This document shows positions 2,051-57,254 of a stretch of DNA of 64,000 nt, piece after piece. The notes beneath the pieces were generated by a model. The model worked only from the letters and a program-made list of their open reading frames with translations, was not told the origin of the DNA and searched no databases. How positions within the stretch are numbered: the first letter of the stretch is position 1; each line of letters starts with the position of its first letter. The position numbers and the translations under genes were made by a program. The stretch is taken from the NCBI GenBank assembly GCA_964415615.1, contig CAYQAW010000001.1, positions 40,593-104,592 on the forward strand, given 5' to 3'. Source of the stretch: an uncultured Gammaproteobacteria bacterium (GTDB lineage Bacteria; Patescibacteriota; Microgenomatia; Daviesbacterales; UBA10151).

Positions 2051-2692
2051 TTAAATTACTAAACCAGAAAGTAAATCTTCTTCATCCCCCATAAGCATCA
2101 CCTTAGGTTGCGTTATAACCCGTAAGATAAACGGATCGCGTCTTTTGACCCTAAAGCTAAATTCCGCTTCATCCATAAAAGAATAGTTAATCTCACCTTC
2201 ACGCCTTGCTTGTTCATCAGCAATAATCGCTTGCAACTCAGGTGAAACTATCTGCCCAACCACCAACAGATCAACATCTTCTGTGTGAGAAGATTCGTTC
2301 TTGAGATATCGCGTAGCAATCATCGCGTACTTAATCCGACCCAACTTACCTTTATTTCTAATAATTGCCCCGCCTAACCCGGTTGATTTAGATACCAAAC
2401 CCACTAGTTCCCGATAATAAGTATAATCCTTGCGGAAACGATATAATCTGCGATTCGCCCTCCATTCCGAAGAAACCATCCCAAACTTTTCCATCCTTGC
2501 AAGCTCGCGCCTGACAGCGTTAATCTCCTCACTAACTCTTCTGACTATTTCACGAACATGAAAAAGCGCAACAACAGGTGAAGATAAAAAAAGTTGTAGT
2601 ATTTTTACCCGGACTCTTGAGACAAAAAGTTCCTCAAGCATTTTAAAACCTCCTTTCCGGGCAGAAAGTTTCGCCAACTGGCCCCGATTCAA
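2051..2692 (-). CDS. winged-helix DNA-binding protein with a C-terminal nucleotidyltransferase-like region (predicted regulator)
   Basis: 213 aa. The N-terminal wHTH-like segment is LEELFVSRVRVKILQLFL...REIVRRV. The C-terminal part has an EDVDLLVVG-type motif. The family assignment is tentative. Confidence 0.4.
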   Translation of the reverse strand: MNRGQLAKLSARKGGFKMLEELFVSRVRVKILQLFLSSPVVALFHVREIVRRVSEEINAVRRELARMEKFGMVSSEWRANRRLYRFRKDYTYYRELVGLVSKSTGLGGAIIRNKGKLGRIKYAMIATRYLKNESSHTEDVDLLVVGQIVSPELQAIIADEQARREGEINYSFMDEAEFSFRVKRRDPFILRVITQPKVMLMGDEEDLLSGLVI

Positions 2693-2706: not shown

Positions 2707-3888
2707 TCAGTAATTCACTTTTGACCCTTCAGGAACAGTTTGAATCCAAATTTGTCCCCGATTAAATTCTATCTCTTGACCATTTTTGTCTAAGAATTTG
2801 CTCCTGGCAGTTCTGGAAAGCTTACTCCACTTACCCTCCACTACATTACCATCCTGGAAAATGAGCGCCTTACCATTCCCAATTGTTCCATACAACAAAT
2901 GAACATTACCAGGATAACCATCATTAGCATTTGCTTCTTTTTCAAATTGAACAATTATAACCTTAGGAGCAAGTTGAATATTATTATCCAAATCTATATG
3001 ATCTGAACCACCATTTTTTCTCTTGTAAGAATTTGTAGCAGAATCATATATCCAGACAACCTCGTAACCAGGCTGGGATTCCCAGAAATTAACTTTGATA
3101 TTCCCAGTAGCTCCGTCTTCTTTATCGTCTTTAAACTTCCAAGAAATAAAGTTCTTATCCCACTTTATCCCTGCTGAATCCGTAGCTGTCCAACCTCTTT
3201 TGGCTCCCACTTCCCAAAGTTTTGCAGTAGTGGAATACATTGTATGTTCTGTGGCAACCGAACGACCTAATCTTTGATAATCTCTCCAAAAAATAGGAAA
3301 CCCAATACTAAATTGGTTTAAATCATTTACTTCATACCTGATAATCTGACCTAAGGCATCTGCTGGACCAGGAGTATTTGCTCCTCCTACATGAGCATAA
3401 AGCGCATCATACTCTCCTAACCAATCCAAAAAATAAGTTCTCGCTGATCTAACTGGCCCAACTTGAACATCTGACAAGTTACAATAAAAAACTGCCATAA
3501 ATCTGGTAATTCCACCTTCTGCAACTGCCTCGTATACTACATCTGCTGAAGAAAGTCCTGATTGAGGTCTTGATTCTGTGTGATTTTCAATCATCACAGC
3601 CAAAGGTCTTCTCTTGTTCCAGAAATCTGCAGCTTTTTGAGTATGCTTACTACCATTTAATGGACATTCCTCAGTTTTTGGCTCATTTGGATCCTCAATC
3701 AAAGCATCAGTAGGAGTTGGCAATGAAGATACTAAACCTGCCTTGCCAGAAGAAGATTTACCAACTGCACTAAATAATGAATAAGATATGCTTGTTGAAA
3801 CACCATAAAAAAACACTCCTAGAATTATTAAAACTAAAATTCTCTGTAAGCTGTTTAGACCTTGAAATGTACTTACTACTTTATTCAT
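2707..3888 (-). CDS. DUF3048-family exported protein (YerB-like)
   Basis: 393 aa with an N-terminal TM/signal. The core PLAVMIENHTESRPQSGLSSADVVYEAVAEGGITRFMAVFY matches the DUF3048 signature, recalled from memory. Confidence 0.55.
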   Translation of the reverse strand: MNKVVSTFQGLNSLQRILVLIILGVFFYGVSTSISYSLFSAVGKSSSGKAGLVSSLPTPTDALIEDPNEPKTEECPLNGSKHTQKAADFWNKRRPLAVMIENHTESRPQSGLSSADVVYEAVAEGGITRFMAVFYCNLSDVQVGPVRSARTYFLDWLGEYDALYAHVGGANTPGPADALGQIIRYEVNDLNQFSIGFPIFWRDYQRLGRSVATEHTMYSTTAKLWEVGAKRGWTATDSAGIKWDKNFISWKFKDDKEDGATGNIKVNFWESQPGYEVVWIYDSATNSYKRKNGGSDHIDLDNNIQLAPKVIIVQFEKEANANDGYPGNVHLLYGTIGNGKALIFQDGNVVEGKWSKLSRTARSKFLDKNGQEIEFNRGQIWIQTVPEGSKVNY

Positions 3889-3892
3889 AATT

Positions 3893-4363
3893 TTACTGTT
3901 CTGTCATTGCTTTTTTAATTACTAATTCTTCTTCCTTTGATAATTGATACTTACTGCTTTTACCCAAAACTATTTCTTTACCAAATACTCTGGTCCCTGG
4001 TCTCGCATGCAAACTAGTAATTACCATTCCCGTTCCAAAGCTATCCAAAAGGCAAATTGTAAAACTTTGATCTCCTCCTGTATCATCATAAGGATTATAA
4101 CGCAATAGTTCTACTCTTTGTATATGCTGCAATCCTTGATCTCTAATTTTTTCTATCTGCACTTTCAAATCAGACAATTCACCTTTAAAACCTTCAATTA
4201 TTTCTATAATTTCTTCAAATTTTTTTCTGATATCGCGACTTCCAGATTTTGGAAAAAGCGATATTAAAAATTTATTCTGCTTCCAAACCAAAAAAGTCAA
4301 AATAATCAACCAAAAAACTATTACCGCCTCAACCAAAACAAAGACGGCCCAATCCGGATACAT
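3893..4363 (-). CDS. DUF4446-family membrane protein
   Basis: 156 aa with an N-terminal TM, a coiled coil, and a RYNPYDDTGGDQSFTICLLDSFGTGMVITSLHAR motif typical of DUF4446. Confidence 0.5.
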   Translation of the reverse strand: MYPDWAVFVLVEAVIVFWLIILTFLVWKQNKFLISLFPKSGSRDIRKKFEEIIEIIEGFKGELSDLKVQIEKIRDQGLQHIQRVELLRYNPYDDTGGDQSFTICLLDSFGTGMVITSLHARPGTRVFGKEIVLGKSSKYQLSKEEELVIKKAMTEQ

Positions 4364-4805
4364 ATGTTACTCTTTCAATATACTTTATAAATATTAACGT
4401 TGTCAACTAAAGCTTTCATCTCTCTTGGTGCTTGACAGCCTTATCATATCATGCTAGGCTCAACTGAGGCTAATTTTAAATACCGTCATGGCTATCCAAC
4501 AGACTAAAAAACAATCAGATCTGGAAAAGCGCCTGCAGTTACTGCGTAAACAAGTCTATGGCAATGAGAAGTTCAGAGTTCAGAGTTCCCCGGCCTCGCT
4601 CCGCGAAGCGGGGCGGGCAGAGTTCAGAGTCGAAAACAAAGGAACTGTAAACTCTTCTAATGATCTTACTTATCTAGGTCAGGATTTATTAAAGATTTTA
4701 ATCTTTTCATCCGCAGCTATTGGTATTCAAATTGTCTTATTTATACTACTGAAAACTAATATCTTGAAACTAAATTTATTTTGAAGGGAGGTGAAATTTA
4801 AGTTA

Positions 4806-4945
4806 TGGCACAAATGTATTGTGTTAAATGCCGCCAGAAAAGAGACGCAGAAAACGTACAAGAAGTCACTATGAAAAATGGCAAAAAAGCCTCAAAAGGT
4901 ACTTGTCCAGTCTGTGGTACTTCTATGTTTAGAATTGGTGGCTAG
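4806..4945 (+). CDS. small zinc-ribbon protein (CxxC...CxxC, DUF5679-like), 46 aa
   Basis: Manual ORF MAQMYCVKCRQKRDAENVQEVTMKNGKKASKGTCPVCGTSMFRIGG. A GGGAGGTG Shine-Dalgarno sits 8-12 nt upstream and a terminator follows. It is too short to appear in the ORF track. Confidence 0.6.
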
Positions 4946-4961
4946 TTAGTTCACCATTTTG

Positions 4962-4999
4962 AAAAATCCCACAAAGCCACAAGGTAGAGTGGGATTTTT
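4962..4999. terminator. bidirectional rho-independent terminator between the zinc-ribbon gene and rnpB
   Basis: AAAAATCCCAC-[17 nt loop]-GTGGGATTTTT. The stem is flanked by an A-run on the left and a T-run on the right, so it can terminate transcripts from both strands. Confidence 0.6.
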
Positions 5000-5004
5000 C
5001 GTGT

Positions 5005-5270
5005 GTGCCTAGGAAGTTAGTAAGCCAGATTCTGTTTCTCGATGATCATTTATCTAACGCTCCTTACTTCAACAAATGGGCAAGCAGCCCTGTTGGTTCT
5101 AGGATTGCAGCGGGGAGGATTGCCTCGTTTCACTCCCAATTTTCATCAGGATTCGTCACTGTTGCTCTATACTAGGCCTTACGGCTGTCGCCTTACGGCG
5201 ACCACCCTGCTTTGTGCTGTCTGGACTTTCCTGTCGCCTAAGGCGACCGATCATCCTTCTTCCTAGGCAA
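5005..5270 (-). ncRNA. rnpB: RNase P RNA (bacterial type, reduced size about 265 nt)
   Basis: The minus strand reads GCCTAGGAAG...CGACAGGAAAGTCCAGACAGCAC...ACAGAATCTGGCTTAC...CTTCCTAGGC. Both P4 strands (AGGAAAGUCCxGxC and ACAGAAxCyGGCUUA) and a closing P1 helix (CCUAGGAAG/CUUCCUAGG) are present. The GC content is higher than its surroundings. Confidence 0.75.
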
Positions 5271-5283
5271 GTCTATTATACAA

Positions 5284-6252
5284 TTAAATCCTTTTTCCTT
5301 CAATTACTTCAGCTGCTATGATTTGAAATACCACTGCCATTGGAACTGCCAGCAATGCCCCTGGAATACCAAGTAATCTACTGCCTATAGCAATTGCCAA
5401 AATTACCACCAAAGGATTTAATCCCACTGCCCTCCTCATCACTTGAGGCACAATTAGATGATTTTCCATTTGTTGAATTATCAAATACATTGCAGCTACA
5501 CCAACACTCAAAACAGGAGAAATAGTCAATGCCAAAAAAATAGCCGGAATCGCCGAAATTATTGGTCCCATAACAGGTATTACTTCCATAATCCCAGCTA
5601 TTAAAGCAAGCGGTAAGGCAAAAGGAATGCCTAAAATTGTCAAACCTATATAAGACAATACTCCAATCAACAAAGACAAGATTAATTGACCTTGTAACCA
5701 GGCTCCTAATTTCCCTTCAATTTTAATTATAGATCTCCTAATCCTTTCTTCTCTACTTCCAAATAATGAAGCAAAACGGCTTTCAAGATTATCTTTGTCC
5801 AACAGCATATAAAAAGTCAGCACCAGTAAAAATACTATGGTAAGTATATTATCAAAAATAGAAATGGTGATAGAAAATAAATTTTTTGAAAAAGATGTAA
5901 GTTCTGAGGAAAAAACAGACTTATCAATATTGGTGATATTAAAAAATTGAGCTATCAAAGACGGCGAGGCTACTATCAACCTTGTAGTTTGTTCAATTAA
6001 AGGAGGCGATATACTCACAATCAACCCCGCTATAATTACTATTATAATAATGTAGGTAATTGCAATACTTAATGCTTTCGGTACTTTTAATCTGATCAAT
6101 GCTTCTACCAAAGGAGACAAGGCTGAAACAAAAATCACTGCCACAAATAGAATGATCAGAAGATCACGGATTAAATAAGTAACCCAAAGAGCTAATATAA
6201 AAATTGCTGTAAATATTACTGTCCTATGAGAAATATCAATCTTGTGTGACAT
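5284..6252 (-). CDS. AI-2E family transporter (PerM/YhhT-like, UPF0118)
   Basis: 322 aa with multiple TMs. The N-terminus FVAVIFVSALSPLVEALIRLKVPKALSIAITYIIIIV and the overall topology are typical of AI-2E family permeases. Confidence 0.65.
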   Translation of the reverse strand: MSHKIDISHRTVIFTAIFILALWVTYLIRDLLIILFVAVIFVSALSPLVEALIRLKVPKALSIAITYIIIIVIIAGLIVSISPPLIEQTTRLIVASPSLIAQFFNITNIDKSVFSSELTSFSKNLFSITISIFDNILTIVFLLVLTFYMLLDKDNLESRFASLFGSREERIRRSIIKIEGKLGAWLQGQLILSLLIGVLSYIGLTILGIPFALPLALIAGIMEVIPVMGPIISAIPAIFLALTISPVLSVGVAAMYLIIQQMENHLIVPQVMRRAVGLNPLVVILAIAIGSRLLGIPGALLAVPMAVVFQIIAAEVIEGKRI

Positions 6253-7210
6253 CTGCAGCTTGATGATACCATTTAACTATTACTTTTTCCACATTACCAG
6301 AAAGATATTGATCAGTTATATCAAACCATTCAATATCTTTCTCTTTTTTAAACCAGGTTTGTTGCCTCCGGGCATACCCATGAATTTTTCCTTGCATAAT
6401 CTTAATTAAATCTTCTTTACTAATAATCTTTCCCTCTAAAAAATCAGCCAATATTCCATATTCTAATCCCAACTGCCTCATTCTTCTAAGACTCAAACCT
6501 GCTTTATGTAATCTTTCTGCCTCATGAATCATTCCCTGATTAATCCTAGAAATAACCCGTTCATCAATTCTTCTGTAAAGAATATCCCTGGGAGCATTTA
6601 ACCCAATCTTTAAAAGATTAGCTTGCTTAAATCCTAAATCATAAATCATAAATCTACTCTTTTTCGGTCTTACCATTATCATTTCTATTGCCCTAACAAG
6701 TCTCCTAGGGTTGTGTCTATCAGACCCATTAAGGCTTTCCCATTTATTTTTATCTAGATTTTGTAACTTTTGTTGTAATTGCTCTTTAGAAAGCTCCTGC
6801 AATTCCTTTCTTAAATCTTTATCTACAGGAATAACTAGATTTGGTAAGCCTTCAAGCAATGCTTTTAGATACAAACCAGTTCCACCTACAATAATTGGCA
6901 GTTTCTCTCTACTTAAGATATTATCCACAACTTTGTTTGCATCTTTAACATAATTATAAACTGTATATTGCTGTCTAAAATCCACCACATCATACATCCA
7001 GACTTTTACCCCATCCATCTCCCAAAACCCTTTACCTTTTTCAACTACTACTTGCTTATCTGGAAGCTTACCTGTCCCAATATCTAATTTTTTGTAAACC
7101 TGCCTTGAATCACAACTGACCAACTCTCCATTAAACTTCTTAGCTAACTTTAGAGCTAAATCTGTTTTACCAGTTGAAGTAGGACCCACGATCATCAATA
7201 ATTTATTCAT
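6236..7210 (-). CDS. miaA: tRNA dimethylallyltransferase
   Basis: P-loop N-terminus LLMIVGPTSTGKTDLALKLAKKFNGELVSCDSRQVYKKLDIGTGK. This is the classic MiaA start. Confidence 0.85.
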   Translation of the reverse strand: MNKLLMIVGPTSTGKTDLALKLAKKFNGELVSCDSRQVYKKLDIGTGKLPDKQVVVEKGKGFWEMDGVKVWMYDVVDFRQQYTVYNYVKDANKVVDNILSREKLPIIVGGTGLYLKALLEGLPNLVIPVDKDLRKELQELSKEQLQQKLQNLDKNKWESLNGSDRHNPRRLVRAIEMIMVRPKKSRFMIYDLGFKQANLLKIGLNAPRDILYRRIDERVISRINQGMIHEAERLHKAGLSLRRMRQLGLEYGILADFLEGKIISKEDLIKIMQGKIHGYARRQQTWFKKEKDIEWFDITDQYLSGNVEKVIVKWYHQAADVTQD

Positions 7211-20224: not shown

Positions 20225-20297
20225 ACATTAACAATACCAAATATATCCCAAAGATCAATACCCCAAAATTACTCTGTATCAATGTATGGATACATAG

Positions 20298-20370
20298 TCG
20301 GGGTGACAAGAATTGAACTTGCTACATCCGCGACCCCATCGCGGCGGTCTACCGATGACCTACACCCCGT
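20298..20370 (-). tRNA. tRNA-Pro (anticodon GGG)
   Basis: The minus strand reads CGGGGTG-TA-GGTC-ATCGGTA-GACC-G-CCGCG-AT-GGG-GT-CGCGG-ATGT-GCAAG-TTCAATT-CTTGT-CACCCCG-A, a full cloverleaf with U33 and G37. CCA is not encoded. Confidence 0.8.
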
Positions 20371-20413: not shown

Positions 20414-21190
20414 ATGAAAATTATTTCCTTAAATACTTGGGGTGGAAAGATCTATCACCCTTTAATAAATTTTATAAACAAAAACGCAAAAGACACAGAT
20501 ATTTTCTGTTTTCAGGAAATATTTGATACAACCTCTGCCCTTACTGATGTTTTAGGATACAGAGTAAATTTATTCAAAGAAATTACTAAAGTCCTAATAA
20601 ATTACTCAGGATACTTTTTCCCATGTATAGATAATTATTTAGTTGGAAGTTTTCAAAAACATTTTACAGATTTTAACCTCTCTTCAGGGTTGGCAATATT
20701 TGTCAAAAAATCTTTAAAAATAACCTCTTCCGGAGATTTCTTTGTTTATAGAAAGAAAAATGATCACAAGTTGGGAGATTTTAATACAATGCCAAAAAAT
20801 GCACAATATATTAGTTTATCTGCTGCAGGAAAACAATTTGTTATTTGTAATATTCACGGTCTCTGGAGTACTGAGGGAAAATATGATACTCCTTCTCGTA
20901 TTCAACAATCTCAAAAGGTTGAAAAGTTTTTAGATGATCAAAAAGGCGGAAAAATTTTGTGTGGGGATTTGAATTTAGCATTAAATACTCGAAGCTTAAA
21001 AATATTAGAAGAAAATATGACCAATTTAATCAAAAAATATAATATTCCTACAACTAGAAACAAACATTTCCCAGGTATGGAAAAATTTGCAGATTATACT
21101 TTTGTATCTCCCGATGTAAAAGTTATAGACTTTCAAGTACCTGATATTGAAATTTCTGATCATCTACCCATGATTTTGGAGTTTTCTTAA
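20414..21190 (+). CDS. endonuclease/exonuclease/phosphatase (EEP) family protein
   Basis: MKIISLNTWGG...DIFCFQEI N-terminal motif and a C-terminal SDHLP motif, both typical of the EEP fold. Confidence 0.7.
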   Translation: MKIISLNTWGGKIYHPLINFINKNAKDTDIFCFQEIFDTTSALTDVLGYRVNLFKEITKVLINYSGYFFPCIDNYLVGSFQKHFTDFNLSSGLAIFVKKSLKITSSGDFFVYRKKNDHKLGDFNTMPKNAQYISLSAAGKQFVICNIHGLWSTEGKYDTPSRIQQSQKVEKFLDDQKGGKILCGDLNLALNTRSLKILEENMTNLIKKYNIPTTRNKHFPGMEKFADYTFVSPDVKVIDFQVPDIEISDHLPMILEFS

Positions 21191-22302
21191 ACTATTTTTT
21201 CCCAGGGGAATTCATCTCGGCCAAAGTGACCATAAGCTGCTGTTGGCAAATATATCGGCCTTTGCAAATCTAAGCCTTTTAATATTCCTGAAACTGATGT
21301 ATCTAAAATTTTCTGCATAAAAGATAGAATTACTTTGTGTGATTTTTTATTAGTCCCGAAAGTTTCTACATCCTGCATAGTAGGTTTCCTAGCTCCTATA
21401 AAATAGGCAAGTCTTACTTCTGCTTTGTCTGCCAGTTTTGCAGCTACAATATTTTTTGCCAAGAATCTGGCAGCATAAGCACCAGATCTGTCCACTTTTG
21501 TTGGATCCTTCCCGGAAAAAGCTCCTCCACCCACTCTGGCATAACCTCCATAACCATCAACTACTATCTTTCTACCAGTCAGTCCACAATCAGCAGCAGG
21601 ACCACCATGATGCCAAACCCCTGTCCCATTAACAATTATTTTATCCTTTTTGATTTTAAATCCATAAACATCTAAAACAGGTATTACTACTGACTGATAA
21701 ATATCATCTTTAACTTTATTCAAATTAACAGATTCCTCATGTGGAATAGCAATAACAACTTGAGTGACTTTATATGGCTTGCCGTCTCTATACTCAATTG
21801 TTACTTGAGACTTCCCATCAGGCCTTAAATATTTAACAATTTTCTCTTCTCTGGCTTGATCCATTCTTTTAGTTAGAGCGTGAGCCATGGTAATAGGCAG
21901 AGGCATCAGGCAAGTTGTTTCTCTGCAGGCATATCCAAACATCATTCCCTGATCTCCGGCTCCTTTTTTATCAACACCAACTCCAATTTCAGGAGATTGT
22001 TCGTGAATATGAACCTCTATTGATGATTTGTGAGAAAAATCATAAGTTGGATCTGTATAGCCTAATCTTTTAATTTGATCTCTGGCAACCTGCCCGTAAT
22101 CCACCCTGGCATGAGCAGTAATCTCCCCGGAAATTACTACTCTGTTAAACCCTGCCAAGACCTCGCAAGCCACATGACCAAATCTATCCTTAGTTAAAAC
22201 TGCATCAACAACTGCATCAGAGATAGCATCACAAATTTTATCCGGGTGACCAGAACAAACTGATTCTGAAGTAAATGTTGTTACACCGTTAGTTTTAATC
22301 AT
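21187..22302 (-). CDS. metK: S-adenosylmethionine synthetase
   Basis: FTSESVCSGHPDKICDAISDAVVDAVL and GGGAFSGKDPTKVDRSGAYAAR are present. The start is set at MIKTNG because the upstream 21 codons overlap the riboswitch terminator. Confidence 0.9.
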   Translation of the reverse strand: MIKTNGVTTFTSESVCSGHPDKICDAISDAVVDAVLTKDRFGHVACEVLAGFNRVVISGEITAHARVDYGQVARDQIKRLGYTDPTYDFSHKSSIEVHIHEQSPEIGVGVDKKGAGDQGMMFGYACRETTCLMPLPITMAHALTKRMDQAREEKIVKYLRPDGKSQVTIEYRDGKPYKVTQVVIAIPHEESVNLNKVKDDIYQSVVIPVLDVYGFKIKKDKIIVNGTGVWHHGGPAADCGLTGRKIVVDGYGGYARVGGGAFSGKDPTKVDRSGAYAARFLAKNIVAAKLADKAEVRLAYFIGARKPTMQDVETFGTNKKSHKVILSFMQKILDTSVSGILKGLDLQRPIYLPTAAYGHFGRDEFPWEKIV

Positions 22303-22305
22303 AAA

Positions 22306-22435
22306 AAACCTCTCAAAAAAATATGAGAGGTTTACAGTTTGTCCGACATTAAGTCGAGACCACATCTTCCTCTCAGGAATCTGGCACCTTAGGCTTTAAG
22401 GTTGCCGGTCGCCTAGGCGACTCTCTTGATGTATT
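22306..22435 (-). promoter_or_regulatory. SAM-I (S-box) riboswitch with intrinsic terminator, controlling metK
   Basis: The minus strand reads ACATCAAGAGAGTCGCCTAGGCGACCGGCAACCTTAAAGCCTAAGGTGCCAGATTCCTGAGAGGAAGATGT, with AUCAAGAGNGG, GGCAACC and AAGGUGCCAAAUUCC blocks and a closing P1. It is followed by the terminator AACCTCTCA-(9 nt)-TGAGAGGTTTTTT directly before the ATG. Confidence 0.8.
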
Positions 22436-22481
22436 TATTATTTAACCATAACTACTTTATTTTGACAAGTCCTCAAAAATT

Positions 22482-25119: not shown

Positions 25120-25575
25120 CTAGTGACTAGGTTTTTTCTCCCTTTTCTTATTAGCAGGTTTCTTTATTTCTGCATTTACTTCTTTTTTATCTTCTTTTCT
25201 TGACTCTAGACTCTTGACTCTAGACTCTTTTTTGGTTGGCTTTAACTGCTCTGCTCCAATTAAGCTCATTTTCACCATAGTAGCCTGATCTCCCTGTCTT
25301 GGCCCCATTCTTACTGTACTAGTAAACCCGGATGTTTTATTTCCTAATTTTGGCAGTATTTCTTTTATCTTTTCTTTTAATTCCTTGTCTGAAGAGAATG
25401 AGTCTTTCTTAACTGAATTGATGATTTTATCAACTAATCCTTTAATTGATTTTGCCTTAGATTCCGAAGTTTGAATAGTACCGTGTAAAAACAGCGACCG
25501 CACCAATGTTTTAAAGAGTGCTTGACGCTGACCTATATCTCTTCCCAGGTGTTTGCCATAAACTCTATGCCTCAC
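25120..25575 (-). CDS. rplQ: 50S ribosomal protein L17 with a Lys/Ser-rich C-terminal extension
   Basis: MRHRVYGKHLGRDIGQRQALFKTLVRSLFLHG. The tail contains a 14-nt tandem duplication (25198-25225). Confidence 0.9.
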   Translation of the reverse strand: MRHRVYGKHLGRDIGQRQALFKTLVRSLFLHGTIQTSESKAKSIKGLVDKIINSVKKDSFSSDKELKEKIKEILPKLGNKTSGFTSTVRMGPRQGDQATMVKMSLIGAEQLKPTKKESRVKSLESRKEDKKEVNAEIKKPANKKREKKPSH

Positions 25576-27893: not shown

Positions 27894-27947
27894 ATTAAAA
27901 CTTTCTTCCAAATTGTAAATTGTAAATTGTAAATTGTAAATTCATAA

Positions 27948-28358: not shown

Positions 28359-29126
28359 TTACAACCCATAGCAGGTTAAAACCTCAGCTTTCTTTTCTCC
28401 TGCATTTACAGTCATCTCAAAAAGCCCTCCCCAGGATTTATCTAATGCTGAAAAAGTCCAATTATCTTCCCCTAAAACTACATCTGGCCCCCCTTTAGTA
28501 TAAATCACTTCAATTGCCAAAGTCATGCCACTCTTTACTACTGAACCAGTTCCTGGAGACCCAACCCCTGGTATTTCCGGATCTTCATGCAAAGATCTAC
28601 CCACTCCATGTCCTACTAAACTTCTGACTACACTATAACCTGCTCCTTCTACTTTAGTTTGAATTGCATGCGATATGTCCCCAATCCTATTACCGTCTAC
28701 CGCCTGAGCAATTCCCAACCATAACGCTTCCTCTCCCGTTTTCAAAAATTTTATTTTTTCTGACTGTTCACTGTCTACTGTACCCTGTCCACTTACTAAA
28801 ACACTCCAGGCGCAATCCGTATGCCAACCTTTATAGACAACTGCCAAATCTACACTCACTAAATCACCGTTGACAAACTTCCGATCGGTAGGTATTCCGT
28901 GTACTACTTGCTCATTTACTGTAATACATGTGGCATATTTATATCCAGGTACAGTTTTATAAGAGAGATCTCCACCATATTTATAAATCTCTTTTTTAAC
29001 TATCTCATCAACCTCCAACTCTGAGGTACCAACTTTTATAGACTCCATGGCGCGCTTGAGTGCTTTTGCTGCGATCTCGCCCGAATGTCTCATCAACTTT
29101 AGCTCATATTGATTTCTTGATTTCAT
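28359..29126 (-). CDS. map: methionine aminopeptidase type I
   Basis: VVHGIP...DLVSVDLAVVYKGWHTDCAWSV...HGVGRSLHEDP. Confidence 0.9.
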   Translation of the reverse strand: MKSRNQYELKLMRHSGEIAAKALKRAMESIKVGTSELEVDEIVKKEIYKYGGDLSYKTVPGYKYATCITVNEQVVHGIPTDRKFVNGDLVSVDLAVVYKGWHTDCAWSVLVSGQGTVDSEQSEKIKFLKTGEEALWLGIAQAVDGNRIGDISHAIQTKVEGAGYSVVRSLVGHGVGRSLHEDPEIPGVGSPGTGSVVKSGMTLAIEVIYTKGGPDVVLGEDNWTFSALDKSWGGLFEMTVNAGEKKAEVLTCYGL

Positions 29127-33260: not shown

Positions 33261-33351
33261 ATTAGTCGCTCCGCTCCAATGTATAATTGAAAATGTAAAA
33301 TGGAAAATTATTTTTCATAGTTTTTAATTGTAAATTGTACATTGTAAATTG

Positions 33352-33897
33352 TTAATTTCTAAATGGCATTCCTAAATACTCTAATAATTTCTTACCTTCT
33401 TGTTTGTTTCTTGCAGTAGTGGTGATAGTTACTGCCAAACCTCTGGTTTTATCCACGCTTTTATAATCAACTTCTGGAAAAATAGTTTGCTCTTTCAAAC
33501 CAATATTTAAATTCCCATTTTGATCAAAAGCATCAGCAGATATACCTCTGAAATCTCTCACCTTAGGTAAAACAATACTTACTAACTTATCCAAGAAAGC
33601 ATACATTTTATCACCTCTCAGTGTCACCATCATCCCAATTGGCTGACCCTGTGCAACTTTAAAAGCTGCAATTGATTTTTTGGCCTTTGTTACAACAGGG
33701 TTTTGACCTGCTAGAGCAGATAAATAAACCTTTACCTTATCCAGAATACCGCTATTATCTTTTGCTTCACCCAAACCAATACTAATTACTATTTTTGTAA
33801 CAGAGGGCACTGCCAGCTTGTTTTTAAATCCCAACTCCTGCTGCAATTTTGCTTGTATTTCTTTAAAATATTTTTCTTTAAGCCTTTGCATTTTCAA
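33352..33897 (-). CDS. rplE: 50S ribosomal protein L5
   Basis: MQRLKEKYFKEIQAKLQQELGFKN... Confidence 0.92.
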   Translation of the reverse strand: MKMQRLKEKYFKEIQAKLQQELGFKNKLAVPSVTKIVISIGLGEAKDNSGILDKVKVYLSALAGQNPVVTKAKKSIAAFKVAQGQPIGMMVTLRGDKMYAFLDKLVSIVLPKVRDFRGISADAFDQNGNLNIGLKEQTIFPEVDYKSVDKTRGLAVTITTTARNKQEGKKLLEYLGMPFRN

Positions 33898-34563: not shown

Positions 34564-34588
34564 AAAATTAGCTATCAGTCTTCAGCTT

Positions 34589-34969
34589 TCAGCTGTCAGA
34601 CTTCTCCTTCCTTTTAGCCTTTTTTTCTGCTTTTTCAGTCTGATGACTGACAGCTGATGACTCTTCAGTCTTTTCTTCTTCTGGCATTACTTCAGCTATC
34701 GCCTGCTCTGCTGCCATTTTCTGTTCTGCCTCCACAATTTCTGCTAAATTCTTCCCTATTACCTTTACAACTCTCCAGTGTTTATTTTTAGAAACTGGTT
34801 TTACTTTAATAATTTCTACTATATCCCCCAGCTTTACTCCAATAGGATCATCCACTAAAATATTTTTAGATCTTAAAAAAGTCTTTCTATATAAAGGATG
34901 CATGGCTGTCCTTTCTATAAGCACTGTTGCAGTTTTACTCATTTTTGCTGATATTACTCTGCCTTTCAT
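34589..34969 (-). CDS. rpsQ: 30S ribosomal protein S17 with a repeat-encoded Lys-rich C-terminal tail
   Basis: GRVISAKMSKTATVLIERTAMHPLYRKT. The tail ...SHQTEKAEKKAKRKEKSDS is encoded by repeat module A. Confidence 0.9.
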   Translation of the reverse strand: MKGRVISAKMSKTATVLIERTAMHPLYRKTFLRSKNILVDDPIGVKLGDIVEIIKVKPVSKNKHWRVVKVIGKNLAEIVEAEQKMAAEQAIAEVMPEEEKTEESSAVSHQTEKAEKKAKRKEKSDS

Positions 34970-34994
34970 GAAATTAGCTATCAGTCTTCAGCTT

Positions 34995-35291
34995 TCAGCT
35001 ATCAGACTTTTCCTTTCTTTTGTTTGACTTCTTTGGCTTTTCTTCTTTTTCATCTGTTTTTTCAGTCTGGAGACTTATTGACTCTAACTCTACCATCAAT
35101 TCTTTCTGTTTGATCAGTGTCAAGATTTGAGCCACTTCTTTTTTCCTTTTTGAAATCGTTTTTAAATCTTTTAATTTCTTCATATTTTTATCCAAAGTCA
35201 AACTAACAATTTCTTCAGTTAAAGTCTTTACTTTAAGTTTTAGTTCTTTTAAATCTAATCCTTTAATTTGTACAAACTCGTTTTTTTTCAT
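34995..35291 (-). CDS. rpmC: 50S ribosomal protein L29 with a repeat-encoded C-terminal tail
   Basis: MKKNEFVQIKGLDLKELKLKVKTLTEEIVSL... The tail ...EKPKKSNKRKEKSDS comes from repeat module B. The start is set at MKKNEF. Confidence 0.85.
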   Translation of the reverse strand: MKKNEFVQIKGLDLKELKLKVKTLTEEIVSLTLDKNMKKLKDLKTISKRKKEVAQILTLIKQKELMVELESISLQTEKTDEKEEKPKKSNKRKEKSDS

Positions 35292-36425: not shown

Positions 36426-36455
36426 AAAAAGTCATCAGTCTTCAGCTTTCAGCTA

Positions 36456-36875
36456 TCAGACTTTTCCTTTCTTTTGTTCAACTTTTTCTGTTTCTGTCTG
36501 CTTTGTTTTCAGTCTGATGACTGATGACTGATGACTGATGACTATTGGCTCATCACTTAGCACTATTTTTATATGTGCCATCCTCTTTTTATATGGTCTC
36601 ACTCTTCCTCTGGTACCTGCCCTGAAACGGCGCATCTTTGTGCTTTCATTTATCTCAATTGTCTTAAAACTTGCTTTTTGGGAATCTAAACCTTTCCCCT
36701 TAGCATTAGCAAGCACTGTTTTAATGGCTTTCTGAAAATCTAAAGCAGCAGACTTGGGTGTAACTTCCAAAACAGCAATGGCTTGATCAGGAGTCATTTT
36801 TCTCACCATATCAGCTACTAATCTCAATTTTCTTGGACTTGTATGTATATATTTTTGTATCGTTGTTATTTCCAT
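36456..36875 (-). CDS. rplV: 50S ribosomal protein L22 with a repeat-encoded C-terminal tail that contains a heptanucleotide tandem repeat
   Basis: METTIQKYIHTSPRKLRLVADMVRKM... The tail VISHQSSVIRLKTKQTETEKVEQKKGKV is encoded by repeat module C and includes (CTGATGA)4. Confidence 0.9.
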   Translation of the reverse strand: MEITTIQKYIHTSPRKLRLVADMVRKMTPDQAIAVLEVTPKSAALDFQKAIKTVLANAKGKGLDSQKASFKTIEINESTKMRRFRAGTRGRVRPYKKRMAHIKIVLSDEPIVISHQSSVIRLKTKQTETEKVEQKKGKV

Positions 36876-56292: not shown

Positions 56293-57254
56293 GGGTTATT
56301 GGCTACATTTTGATTATGTTCTTCTAAAGTTTTGCCGTAATATGAGTTGCCTTTTGAGTCATGGTAATAATATAAATAAGGGGTGTTTAAATCAGCATTG
56401 GCCACAGCTTCAAGCGAGGCTAAACCAGGATTGGAAATTGGGGTTGGAGGCAAACCAGCATGCAAGTAAGTATTATATGGCGAGTCAACTTGAAAATCAT
56501 CTTTACTCAAATTCCTTTTCCACCAGCTTTTTTCCTGAAGTTGATACCCTAAAGCATATTGAATTGTAGCATCTGCATTCAGTCCCATATCTATTTTTAA
56601 TCTTTTAAGCAGAATGCTTGCTATTTCTGTTCTTACCTTTGCAGACCTTGCTTCCCGTTCAACAATAGAAGCTAAAATAATCCCTTGAGTCTCAGTAAGC
56701 CCTTTGGAACGGATTTGGGAACGCAAAGCGTCTGTAAAACGGTTATCAAAAGTTTTTCTCAAAGTATCAGTTATATATCCTACTGAAGCCTCTTTAGGAA
56801 AAAGGTATGTATCAGGAAACATGTAACCTTCTTTTGCCAATTCCAAAAATTTTGAATTTTGAATTTTGAATTTTGAATTTAATTCTTCTGCCATTTCTTC
56901 AACACGCCAACCCTCTATTAAAGTAACCCAAATATCCTCACTGCCTGTTTTCAAAGTTTTTACCAATTCCTGCACAGACATAGAAGGAGAAAGCTTAAAT
57001 GAACCTGCCTGAAGCTTATCTGTCAAATTATTTTGTTTGATATAAATCTTAAAAGCTAATTCTGATTTGATAAGATTATCTTCCTTTAACTTTTTAGCAA
57101 TTCCAGATACCCCGGTGCCTTTTTCAATTACAAAAACCTTAGTTGATTTATCAGAAGATACAGATCCCAATTGGCCATTCCACCAATTTTTACTTAAAAA
57201 AAATATAGCCATCAAAAAAATAAAAAACCAGATTATCCTTTTCATTTTTTTCAT
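56289..57254 (-). CDS. mltG: endolytic murein transglycosylase MltG (YceG family)
   Basis: N-terminal TM, then the EGYMFPDTYLFPKEAS (YceG) motif and C-terminal YYYHDSKGNSYYGKTLEEH. It contains a (TTTGAAT)4 tandem repeat. Confidence 0.8.
   Translation of the reverse strand: MKKMKRIIWFFIFLMAIFFLSKNWWNGQLGSVSSDKSTKVFVIEKGTGVSGIAKKLKEDNLIKSELAFKIYIKQNNLTDKLQAGSFKLSPSMSVQELVKTLKTGSEDIWVTLIEGWRVEEMAEELNSKFKIQNSKFLELAKEGYMFPDTYLFPKEASVGYITDTLRKTFDNRFTDALRSQIRSKGLTETQGIILASIVEREARSAKVRTEIASILLKRLKIDMGLNADATIQYALGYQLQEKSWWKRNLSKDDFQVDSPYNTYLHAGLPPTPISNPGLASLEAVANADLNTPYLYYYHDSKGNSYYGKTLEEHNQNVANNP

Follow-up and report, generated by a model that had tools for sequence, protein, structure and literature searches.

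A GC-rich 30-nt hairpin in a Daviesbacteria gene as a probable copy of a dispersed miniature element

A GC-rich hairpin lies near the left end of a 64,000-nt stretch of contig CAYQAW010000001.1 (assembly GCA_964415615.1), referred to here as the window. The hairpin, named element H, is 30 nt long (CCCCGGCCTCGCTCCGCGAAGCGGGGCGGG; 4588..4617, + strand). It is an intact copy of a dispersed element, placed in-frame between a T and a C at the centre of the array (CAGAGTT)x4, in the variable linker of a small membrane-anchored protein. The multi-copy family of which H is a member extends over several phyla and follows one junction rule, and at this locus H is a 30-nt presence/absence difference relative to alleles that are otherwise 95-97% identical. 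Probably it is a non-autonomous, selfish mobile element of the miniature hairpin kind. An earlier sequence-only reading had favored an RNA element acting on the downstream zinc-ribbon gene and had mentioned, as a second possibility, the remnant of a small repeat element. The second suggestion was right in kind, but the copy is intact and not a remnant; the window matches the H consensus at 30/30 positions.

Element H and the alleles that lack it

The sequence quoted in the earlier reading, GAGAAGTTCAGAGTTCAGAGTTCCCCGGCCTCGCTCCGCGAAGCGGGGCGGGCAGAGTTCAGAGTCG, is present at 4566-4632. Within it, H is laid out as CCCCGG-CCTCGCTCCGCGAAGCGGGGCG-GG, with T4587 as its immediate left neighbor and C4618 as its right neighbor, and contributes 10 codons, part of SPASLREAGRA. 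As read from the sequence, the hairpin core (4597..4615, +) consists of the arm CGCTCCGC (4597-4604), a GAA loop (4605-4607), and the arm GCGGGGCG (4608-4615), with GCGAAGC within the apex. The described 8-pair stem around GAA is thus confirmed, one of the pairs being T-G, and beyond a bulged T it is extended by CC (4594-4595) pairing with GG (4616-4617). When run with DNA parameters, ViennaRNA favors a fold that is shifted in register and pairs the whole 30-mer end to end (-11.2 kcal/mol). The patch is as strikingly GC-rich as had been remarked: with a GC fraction of 0.87 it is the top 30-mer of the window (99.9th percentile 0.667, median 0.37). Its folding energy is not significant alone when compared with shuffles (z = -0.9 for the 81-nt RNA, -1.8 to -2.1 for DNA), because GC-rich shuffles fold too, and the z-scores were therefore left out of the evidence for H. 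The non-chance origin of H is shown by its exact recurrence elsewhere and its absence from near-identical alleles.

The true repeat unit around H is the heptamer CAGAGTT, with about 2.7 units to the left and 2 to the right. The left half of the array (4569..4587, +) starts with an incomplete unit, AAGTT, after which come two full ones, CAGAGTT (4574-4580) and CAGAGTT (4581-4587); the right half (4618..4631, +) reads CAGAGTT (4618-4624) and CAGAGTC (4625-4631). Tandem Repeats Finder reports a period of 7 at 4570-4588, with 2.7 copies and 100% matches, and a 13-nt direct repeat, CAGAGTTCAGAGT, stands on either side of the GC patch at 4574 and 4618. The three or four flanking copies counted earlier are therefore correct for the heptamer but not for the exact 9-mer AGAGTTCAG, which occurs only twice (4575 and 4619); two or more matches arise in 12/100 shuffles, so that the 9-mer is not significant alone. 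Without H, the array reads (CAGAGTT)x4 in register.

The open reading frame (ORF) that contains H (4488..4784, +) had been noted correctly but called doubtful. It is a real, conserved Daviesbacteria gene (NCBI HYT74_00305), whose 98-aa product, a small membrane-anchored protein, is identical (100%) to an annotated Candidatus Daviesbacteria protein and is conserved at the protein level in >120 homologues. In the homologue alignment the N-terminus, MAIQQTKKQSDLEKRLQLLRKQVYG, is invariant and a hydrophobic C-terminal transmembrane helix is conserved. Between these ends lies a linker that varies in length and sequence and that is an accumulation zone for arrays and hairpins in other lineages. Homologue linkers carry four-unit heptamer arrays of AATCAGA, CTACCAA, CTACAAA, and CAGAGTT (genes at L236 301-693, L237 301-567, L238 301-603, and L011 1501-1788, where L numbers denote loci), as well as H-like hairpins, namely the perfect palindrome CTCGCTTCGCGAAGCGAG, whose core resembles H, and an antisense H that is degenerate. 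It seems that H is tolerated at this locus because the linker is unconstrained.

The closest relatives of the 98-aa protein have 88 or 81 residues. Their DNA flanks are 95.3-96.7% identical to those of the window, and the sole internal gaps are of 30 nt (88-aa alleles) and 51 nt (81-aa alleles). H is exactly the 30-nt gap in the alignment with the 88-aa alleles L002-L004. These alleles have four heptamers and no H, while the window has the same four plus 30 nt between the second and the third; at the junction they read ...TT|CAG..., and nothing is duplicated there. The 81-aa alleles contain a single heptamer (...AAGTT CAGAGTT GAAAGC). The insertion of H amounts to 10 codons and keeps the reading frame. 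Protein-level conservation of the ORF with synonymous drift across the hairpin had been named as the pattern that would tell against an RNA element; the conservation is found, whereas the drift test is inapplicable because the relatives are without the hairpin altogether. The array appears to be older than H because the heptamers of the 88-aa alleles have diverged from one another and because a more distant relative (L011, 57% protein identity) has (CAGAGTT)x4 without H. By parsimony, H would be a gain in the lineage of the window.

Four comparisons of filled and empty sites are available: the window versus L002-L004, L065 versus L101, L076 versus L110, and the sibling element H2 (see below), present in 2/7 copies of a Chloroflexia repeat. 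In all four the difference is the element alone, without target duplication. Three of them involve sibling copies of larger repeats, which differ cleanly between T and C. A target-site duplication, hinted at by 7-nt and 14-nt direct repeats that flank some copies of H, is seen in none of the four pairs.

A dispersed family with one junction rule

One genome per GTDB species was scanned for the exact 22-nt core of H. The core is present in 104 stretches from about 33 metagenome-assembled genomes (MAGs) of at least eight phylum-level lineages. Among Patescibacteria the hosts are Daviesbacteria, Levybacteria, Komeilibacteria, Saccharibacteria, and others; beyond them they include Nitrospirota/Thermodesulfovibrionia, Chloroflexia, Thermodesulfobacteriota (Desulfobacterota), Cloacimonadota, Stahlbacteria, and a few proteobacterial MAGs. 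A metagenome collection yielded the core in at least 120 further stretches, and all metagenome figures given here are for the matches listed. The search for other copies of the hairpin that had been suggested earlier was fruitful outside the window, yet inside it there is no further copy, whether up to 3 mismatches are allowed or the core is searched for in degenerate form. Since most loci with H have 30-50% GC, the matches are not chance hits in GC-rich DNA. There is one match per locus and a maximum of 21 loci per MAG. A CRISPR (clustered regularly interspaced short palindromic repeats) repeat was considered and rejected: with one match per locus in 224 loci, there are no regularly spaced copies. 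Among these copies, all picked by the exact 22-mer, full 30/30 identity is seen in 91/105 genome instances and 98/119 metagenome instances; six bystander copies that were not so selected differ at 1-3/30 positions. In the genome set the 5' end CCCCGG is found in 93/105 copies and the 3' end GG in 102/105, and the element boundaries set by the aligned instances give the same 30-mer as in the window. None of the papers searched contains the sequence of H.

At the junction in the genome set, T occupies position -1 in 82/105 copies and C position +1 in 95/105, and C recurs at -7 and +8; the metagenome matches replicate the junction (T in 81/111, C in 101/111). The usual sites of H are the centre of heptamer arrays of 4-5 units and the apex of palindromes. 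Among 103 genome copies, 25 are flanked by 14-nt direct repeats (two heptamers on each side) and 9 by 7-nt repeats only, none by direct repeats of 21 or 28 nt, and 24 have palindromic flanks, which place H on the apex of a larger hairpin. The numbers of units to the left and right are mostly balanced, (2,2) in 15 cases, (2,3) in 7, and (3,2) in 4, as against (1,3) in 5 and (3,1) in 1; the window copy is central, with two units on each side. The heptamer itself varies by locus (CTGACTT, CGGTTCA, CTGACAA, CGTCACT, CAAAATT, and others). In L016 and L111, two HdrA-like genes from the same MAG, the flanks of H show just one 7-nt direct repeat, cttgcat; H plus this repeat amounts to 37 nt, a length not divisible by three, inside a long open frame.

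H has a sibling, H2, which is 25 nt long (CCCCGGCCCGACCTGCCGGGGCGGG) and has both ends (CCCCGG...GGGGCGGG) and the outer stem in common with H. Its form CCCCGGCCCGACC(T/C)GCCGGGGCGGG occurs at L057 5555-5579 and at L093 (reverse) 2417-2441. H2 stands at T^C in the 2/7 copies of the Chloroflexia repeat mentioned above, which resembles a miniature inverted-repeat transposable element (MITE) and carries H too.

All six frames of H are free of stop codons. It is translatable in every frame, and many copies lie within housekeeping genes: about 40% of the genome-set copies are inside long ORFs, 45 copies fall within open frames of 220 aa or more, with each of the six frames represented. The host genes encode, for example, GlmS, DnaX, FolD, GatB, RibE (riboflavin synthase), RecJ, and a heptosyltransferase. 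Compared with the four closest of 12 homologues, the Daviesbacteria GlmS has exactly 17 additional residues at the H site. This gain corresponds to H plus three heptamers, a net 51 nt, which equals the difference between the 98-aa and 81-aa proteins described above. The GlmS gene at L112 (reverse) has two more GC-rich in-frame inserts (coding-sequence nt 471-515 and 640-665), one of 45 nt with GCAACC/GGTTGC around TCGAAGGCCTTCGGCCGTGAGCCTCAGGCCGAATC and the other of 21 nt, plus a 14-mer array. Several hairpin families thus seem to colonize genes such as this one. A different GC-rich hairpin, CACCTCGGACGGTGGCCCGAAGGGACTCCTCCGAGGTG, is found in miaA of relatives (L005 ~5075-5135, L006 ~4994-5054), where miaA of the window (6610-6680) has a TAAATCA x3.9 array.

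Both scanned Daviesbacteria MAGs that bear H, and the most H-rich Nitrospirae MAGs, carry the project name 'NC_groundwater' (record titles of L015, L023, L027, L029, L037, L059, L067, L077, L079, L080, L095, L099, L103, L107, L108, and L112), and the Hainich and Rifle aquifers each supply H-bearing Patescibacteria and other phyla. Such co-occurrence in the same projects and aquifers hints at an exchange of H within communities.

Mobility, mechanism, and rival explanations

In the transposition of single strands by HUH enzymes, recognition is guided by hairpins, the target is short and fixed and is not duplicated, and excision is precise. By analogy, it is possible, though the proposal is a tentative one, that H moves as a folded single strand through a trans-encoded, structure-specific enzyme of the HUH/Y1 type. 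The features that suggest this are the strong hairpin with an unpaired 5' tag, the fixed dinucleotide, the lack of duplication, the apparent precise loss, and sites that extrude single-stranded DNA. Such an enzyme would recognize the hairpin and the unpaired 5' CCCCGG tag, and H would be joined at a T^C step that becomes accessible where the DNA adopts a non-B form, for example in a slipped heptamer array or a hairpin loop. The target site would not be duplicated, and H could be lost precisely, a logic like that of insertion sequences IS200/IS605, of REP (repetitive extragenic palindromic) sequences with their RAYT (REP-associated tyrosine transposase) enzymes, and of IS91/Helitron.

Several observations weigh against a mobile element of this kind. 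H is a palindrome found at up to 21 loci in one MAG, yet the 64-kb window has a single copy, and the window is core genome (Pfam on all its 59 large ORFs gave core genes among the 25 families listed). No linked gene emerged from all-versus-all ORF clustering around 104 and then 224 loci (~1.6 Mb), in which the only recurrent families were housekeeping ones (ABC/UvrA-type ATPases, EF-G, TPR proteins, FolD). An approximate IS200 TnpA probe had no match in 4311 ORFs, and there was no RAYT gene among the neighborhoods of H loci. As for a vehicle, H is absent from the viral, plasmid, and phage collections IMG/VR, PLSDB, and INPHARED, which leaves its cross-phylum spread unexplained. Its orientation relative to local GC skew is 81:75, without the bias that a lagging-strand single-stranded DNA mechanism might give, and its central position in arrays is not predicted by simple insertion. 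The polarity of filled and empty sites rests on parsimony, and empty sites could be precise deletions. Finally, the ascertainment by exact 22-mer is biased, so that the real uniformity of the family is not given by the counts, and some MAG assignments are possibly binning errors. Daviesbacteria and Levybacteria are represented by long, syntenic contigs.

The central position leads to an alternative that differs from the preferred explanation in the origin of the array only. Here, a single heptamer X would turn into XX-H-XX, so that 51 nt (17 codons) are gained on balance and the frame is always kept, and H-free four-unit arrays would be leftovers of precise H loss. Its background is the abundance of heptamer arrays. 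The window has 15 period-7 arrays, compared with 2.2 in dinucleotide shuffles (about seven-fold), and 11 of at least 3.3 units, compared with 0.13. Most hold 3.9-4.9 units, and they lie within ORFs and in spacers of the ribosomal-protein operon; those of about 4-5 units are at 6628-6654, 25198-25228, 27910-27942, 28763-28793, 33285-33357, 34570-34599, 34976-35010, 36441-36543, and 56848-56880. In 1.66 Mb of H-bearing loci, period 7 is dominant with 365 arrays, as against 48-139 for each of the periods 6, 8, 9, and 10. Over loci L012-L235 and the window, period-7 arrays show a second copy-number peak at 4-5 units and become sharply rarer above 5, both inside and outside ORFs; such a ceiling at five units is odd for a slippage-driven microsatellite. 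Identical units also occur at different loci: CAAAATT is shared by the array at window position 56848 (x4.7), DnaX at L027, and GlmS at L112, the latter two being H-carrying arrays in other Daviesbacteria genes, and CTGACTT is found at four loci.

The enrichment of the arrays, their copy-number ceiling, and the recurrence of their units favor a coupled origin, as do the flanking repeats of 14 nt and never 21 or 28 nt, the 14-nt repeats at L080 and L087, which consist of two different heptamers duplicated exactly across H, and the net gain of 17 aa in two independent genes. The central position, the recurrent +51 nt, and the five-unit cap keep this explanation alive, but it is doubtful: the diverged heptamers of the H-free four-unit alleles and the H-free array of the 57%-identical relative suggest that the array is older, in each of the four filled/empty pairs H is the sole difference, about a quarter of copies are found in palindromes without any heptamers, and in coding DNA selection for frame alone would favor a three-unit gain. 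In its general form, which is no less doubtful, genes and spacers would receive a 51-nt module that is neutral to the reading frame (two heptamers, the hairpin, two heptamers), written by an undescribed cross-phylum system. The writer would be a trans-acting enzyme, or a templated polymerase that carries its own H template, and the short arrays of 4-5 units would be its footprints. An unexplained excess of such arrays in bacterial genomes has been noted for a long time.

A selfish element is also to be weighed against a structure useful to the host, similar to REP or bacterial interspersed mosaic elements (BIMEs) and serving as a site for gyrase or a nucleoid protein, an mRNA stabilizer, or a recombination or uptake signal. 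The dominance of copies with 0-1 mismatch and a somewhat commoner sense orientation in ORFs (46:26, p = 0.024) are in its favor. So, at first sight, are the orthologous filled sites L015 and L058, in which H is 30/30 identical and the flanks are 75% identical; this test is biased, though, because both were selected by the 22-mer and the 8 free positions give P ~0.1, and it was dropped as evidence. Usefulness to the host is improbable, given that near-identical strains live without H, that copies per genome range from 1 to >20, and that the sites are haphazard and in both orientations (unrelated protein linkers, spacers, and interiors of other repeats).

Far less probable still is the RNA reading, by which the hairpin is an attenuator, a processing site, or a protein-binding cis-regulatory element for the zinc-ribbon gene, inside an unreal ORF. 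That gene (4805..4945, +) lies outside the element and encodes a 46-aa DUF5679 protein (Pfam PF18930, E = 8.9e-18). The hairpin stands 188 nt upstream of its start codon on the same strand, and the order of a DUF4446 gene (opposite strand), the 98-aa gene, and the DUF5679 gene is conserved. Alleles that are 95-97% identical and have the same operon lack the hairpin, however; the DUF5679 gene is downstream of these too, and it has a strong Shine-Dalgarno sequence of its own (GGGAGGTG). The ORF is conserved, and in other phyla this 30-mer is found in either orientation within genes and spacers that are unrelated. The Rfam check that had been advised gave nothing over 4540-4700 at E <= 10 (3800-5600 scanned), and at the gathering threshold the whole window has only RNase P RNA, tRNA, and a SAM-I/IV riboswitch, none on the hairpin. 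An intrinsic terminator or attenuator was likewise rejected, as there is no terminator-like site at 4300-5050 and the stem is followed by CAGAGTTCAG and not by a U-tract. H appears to have no role in the expression of the zinc-ribbon gene.

The single copy in the window and a GC content of 87%, foreign to a genome of 35% GC, might raise the suspicion of an assembly chimera, an adapter, foreign DNA, or a palindrome made locally by template switching. An artefact or local accident of this sort is scarcely credible: the insert is in-frame, exactly 30 nt, and in register within the array, and the 98-aa protein is recorded on two contigs. The same 30-mer with its T^C junction occurs at >200 loci from many laboratories and assemblers, long-read MAGs included, while a locally made palindrome would not recur identically elsewhere.

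Window context and comparison with known systems

Other structured features of the window are distinct from H. A GC-rich hairpin at 2680-2700, GGCCCCGATTCAATCGGGGCT, is unrelated to H in sequence; it overlaps the start of the ORF 2051-2692 (-) and lies directly downstream of the ORF 2707-3888 (-). Just downstream of the zinc-ribbon gene is a bacterial class A RNase P RNA (5005-5266, -; 112 bits), which is without some peripheral helices. The second GC-rich patch of the window is tRNA-Pro(GGG) at 20297-20369 (-), and the SAM-I/IV (S-adenosylmethionine) riboswitch at 22325-22437 (-) is upstream of a SAM synthetase-like ORF (21190-22395).

At 30 nt, H would rank among the smallest elements with hallmarks of mobility, and it provides a link between a hairpin element and heptanucleotide tandem repeats. 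Lineages as distant as the Candidate Phyla Radiation, Nitrospirota, and Chloroflexota have groundwater and sediment habitats in common, and the near-identity of H across them points to an unknown exchange route or a portable 'writer'. Very reduced genomes still accept inserts of 10-17 residues in the essential GlmS, DnaX, FolD, and GatB. In practical terms, H causes breaks in assemblies, many of its copies being at contig ends; it adds spurious low-complexity peptides to protein databases, and it is a sharp strain-level marker.

Heptanucleotide tandem repeats are over-represented in cyanobacteria (short tandemly repeated repetitive sequences, STRR), in Beggiatoaceae (TAACTGA; PMC4679880), and in Xanthomonas and Nostoc (PMC4692102), an excess in bacteria that was noted in 2007 and is still unexplained (PMC4679880, PMC4692102). 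The AGAGTTCAG repeats of the window are such an array, and similar arrays lie in spacers of ribosomal-protein operons and in ORFs. Those at H loci differ from the known ones in that they are short (4-5 units), change their unit from locus to locus, and are in some cases split by a hairpin.

In mechanistic terms, IS200/IS605, IS91, and Helitron are analogous to H in having a hairpin, a fixed target, and no duplication. They differ in that each owns an identified transposase or relies on one, and in that their two ends are distinct; an IS200/IS605-type element has two subterminal hairpins together with tnpA, or relies on a resident tnpA. H consists of one hairpin, with no gene associated with it and no tnpA nearby. 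The GC clusters of yeast mitochondria are GC-rich palindromes of ~30-50 nt in an AT-rich genome, polymorphic among strains and occasionally in coding sequence. Like H, they are short, GC-rich, palindromic, scattered, and polymorphic; unlike H, they are organellar and fungal, belong to other sequence families with another reported flanking dinucleotide, and are not known to be linked to heptamer arrays. Rickettsia palindromic elements, of ~100-150 bp and with a CGTC tag, are confined to Rickettsia (PMC3733652). As with H, palindromic selfish DNA is present in-frame in genes that stay functional, but H is of 30 nt, lacks the CGTC tag, and crosses phyla.

REP sequences and their hairpin-forming doublets (REPINs) are mobilized by RAYT (Y1 HUH) transposases and have a GTAG or CGTC tag (PMC3116915, PMC3733652). 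H shares with them an imperfect palindrome of 20-40 nt, an unpaired conserved tag at one end, and a multi-copy, non-autonomous nature; some of their copies are in genes, and a target-site duplication is not expected. In contrast to them, H ends in CCCCGG and GCGGG and not in a GTAG/CGTC tag, and it does not form inverted doublets, its only close pair (L067) being direct. REP/REPIN sequences are lineage-specific with hundreds of copies per genome, while H is shared across phyla with tens at most; nor is H extragenic, with ~40% of the genome-set copies in long ORFs.

The small dispersed repeats (SDRs) are of 21-27 nt and have been reported in Nostocaceae only, and SDR5 inserts between nucleotides 3 and 4 of HIP1 (highly iterated palindrome 1) (PMC4390886, PMC5861425, PMC3116915). 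They resemble H in being tens of nucleotides long, capable of forming hairpins, dispersed in many copies, and cleanly present or absent in conserved sequence; they also insert precisely at a fixed position of a short target and have neither coding capacity nor a known enzyme. By description, SDRs differ in length (21-27 nt versus 30 nt for H and 25 nt for H2) and in having been reported from Nostocaceae only, whereas H occurs nearly letter-identical in non-cyanobacteria (Patescibacteria, Nitrospirota, Chloroflexota, Desulfobacterota, and others). H is, in addition, GC-rich in AT-rich hosts and often in-frame within housekeeping genes. Elhai et al. are said to have described in 2008 an association of SDR4-6 of Nostocaceae with tandem heptamer repeats. 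Among described elements, H thus most resembles the SDRs of Nostocaceae and then REP/REPIN, and falls under neither definition.

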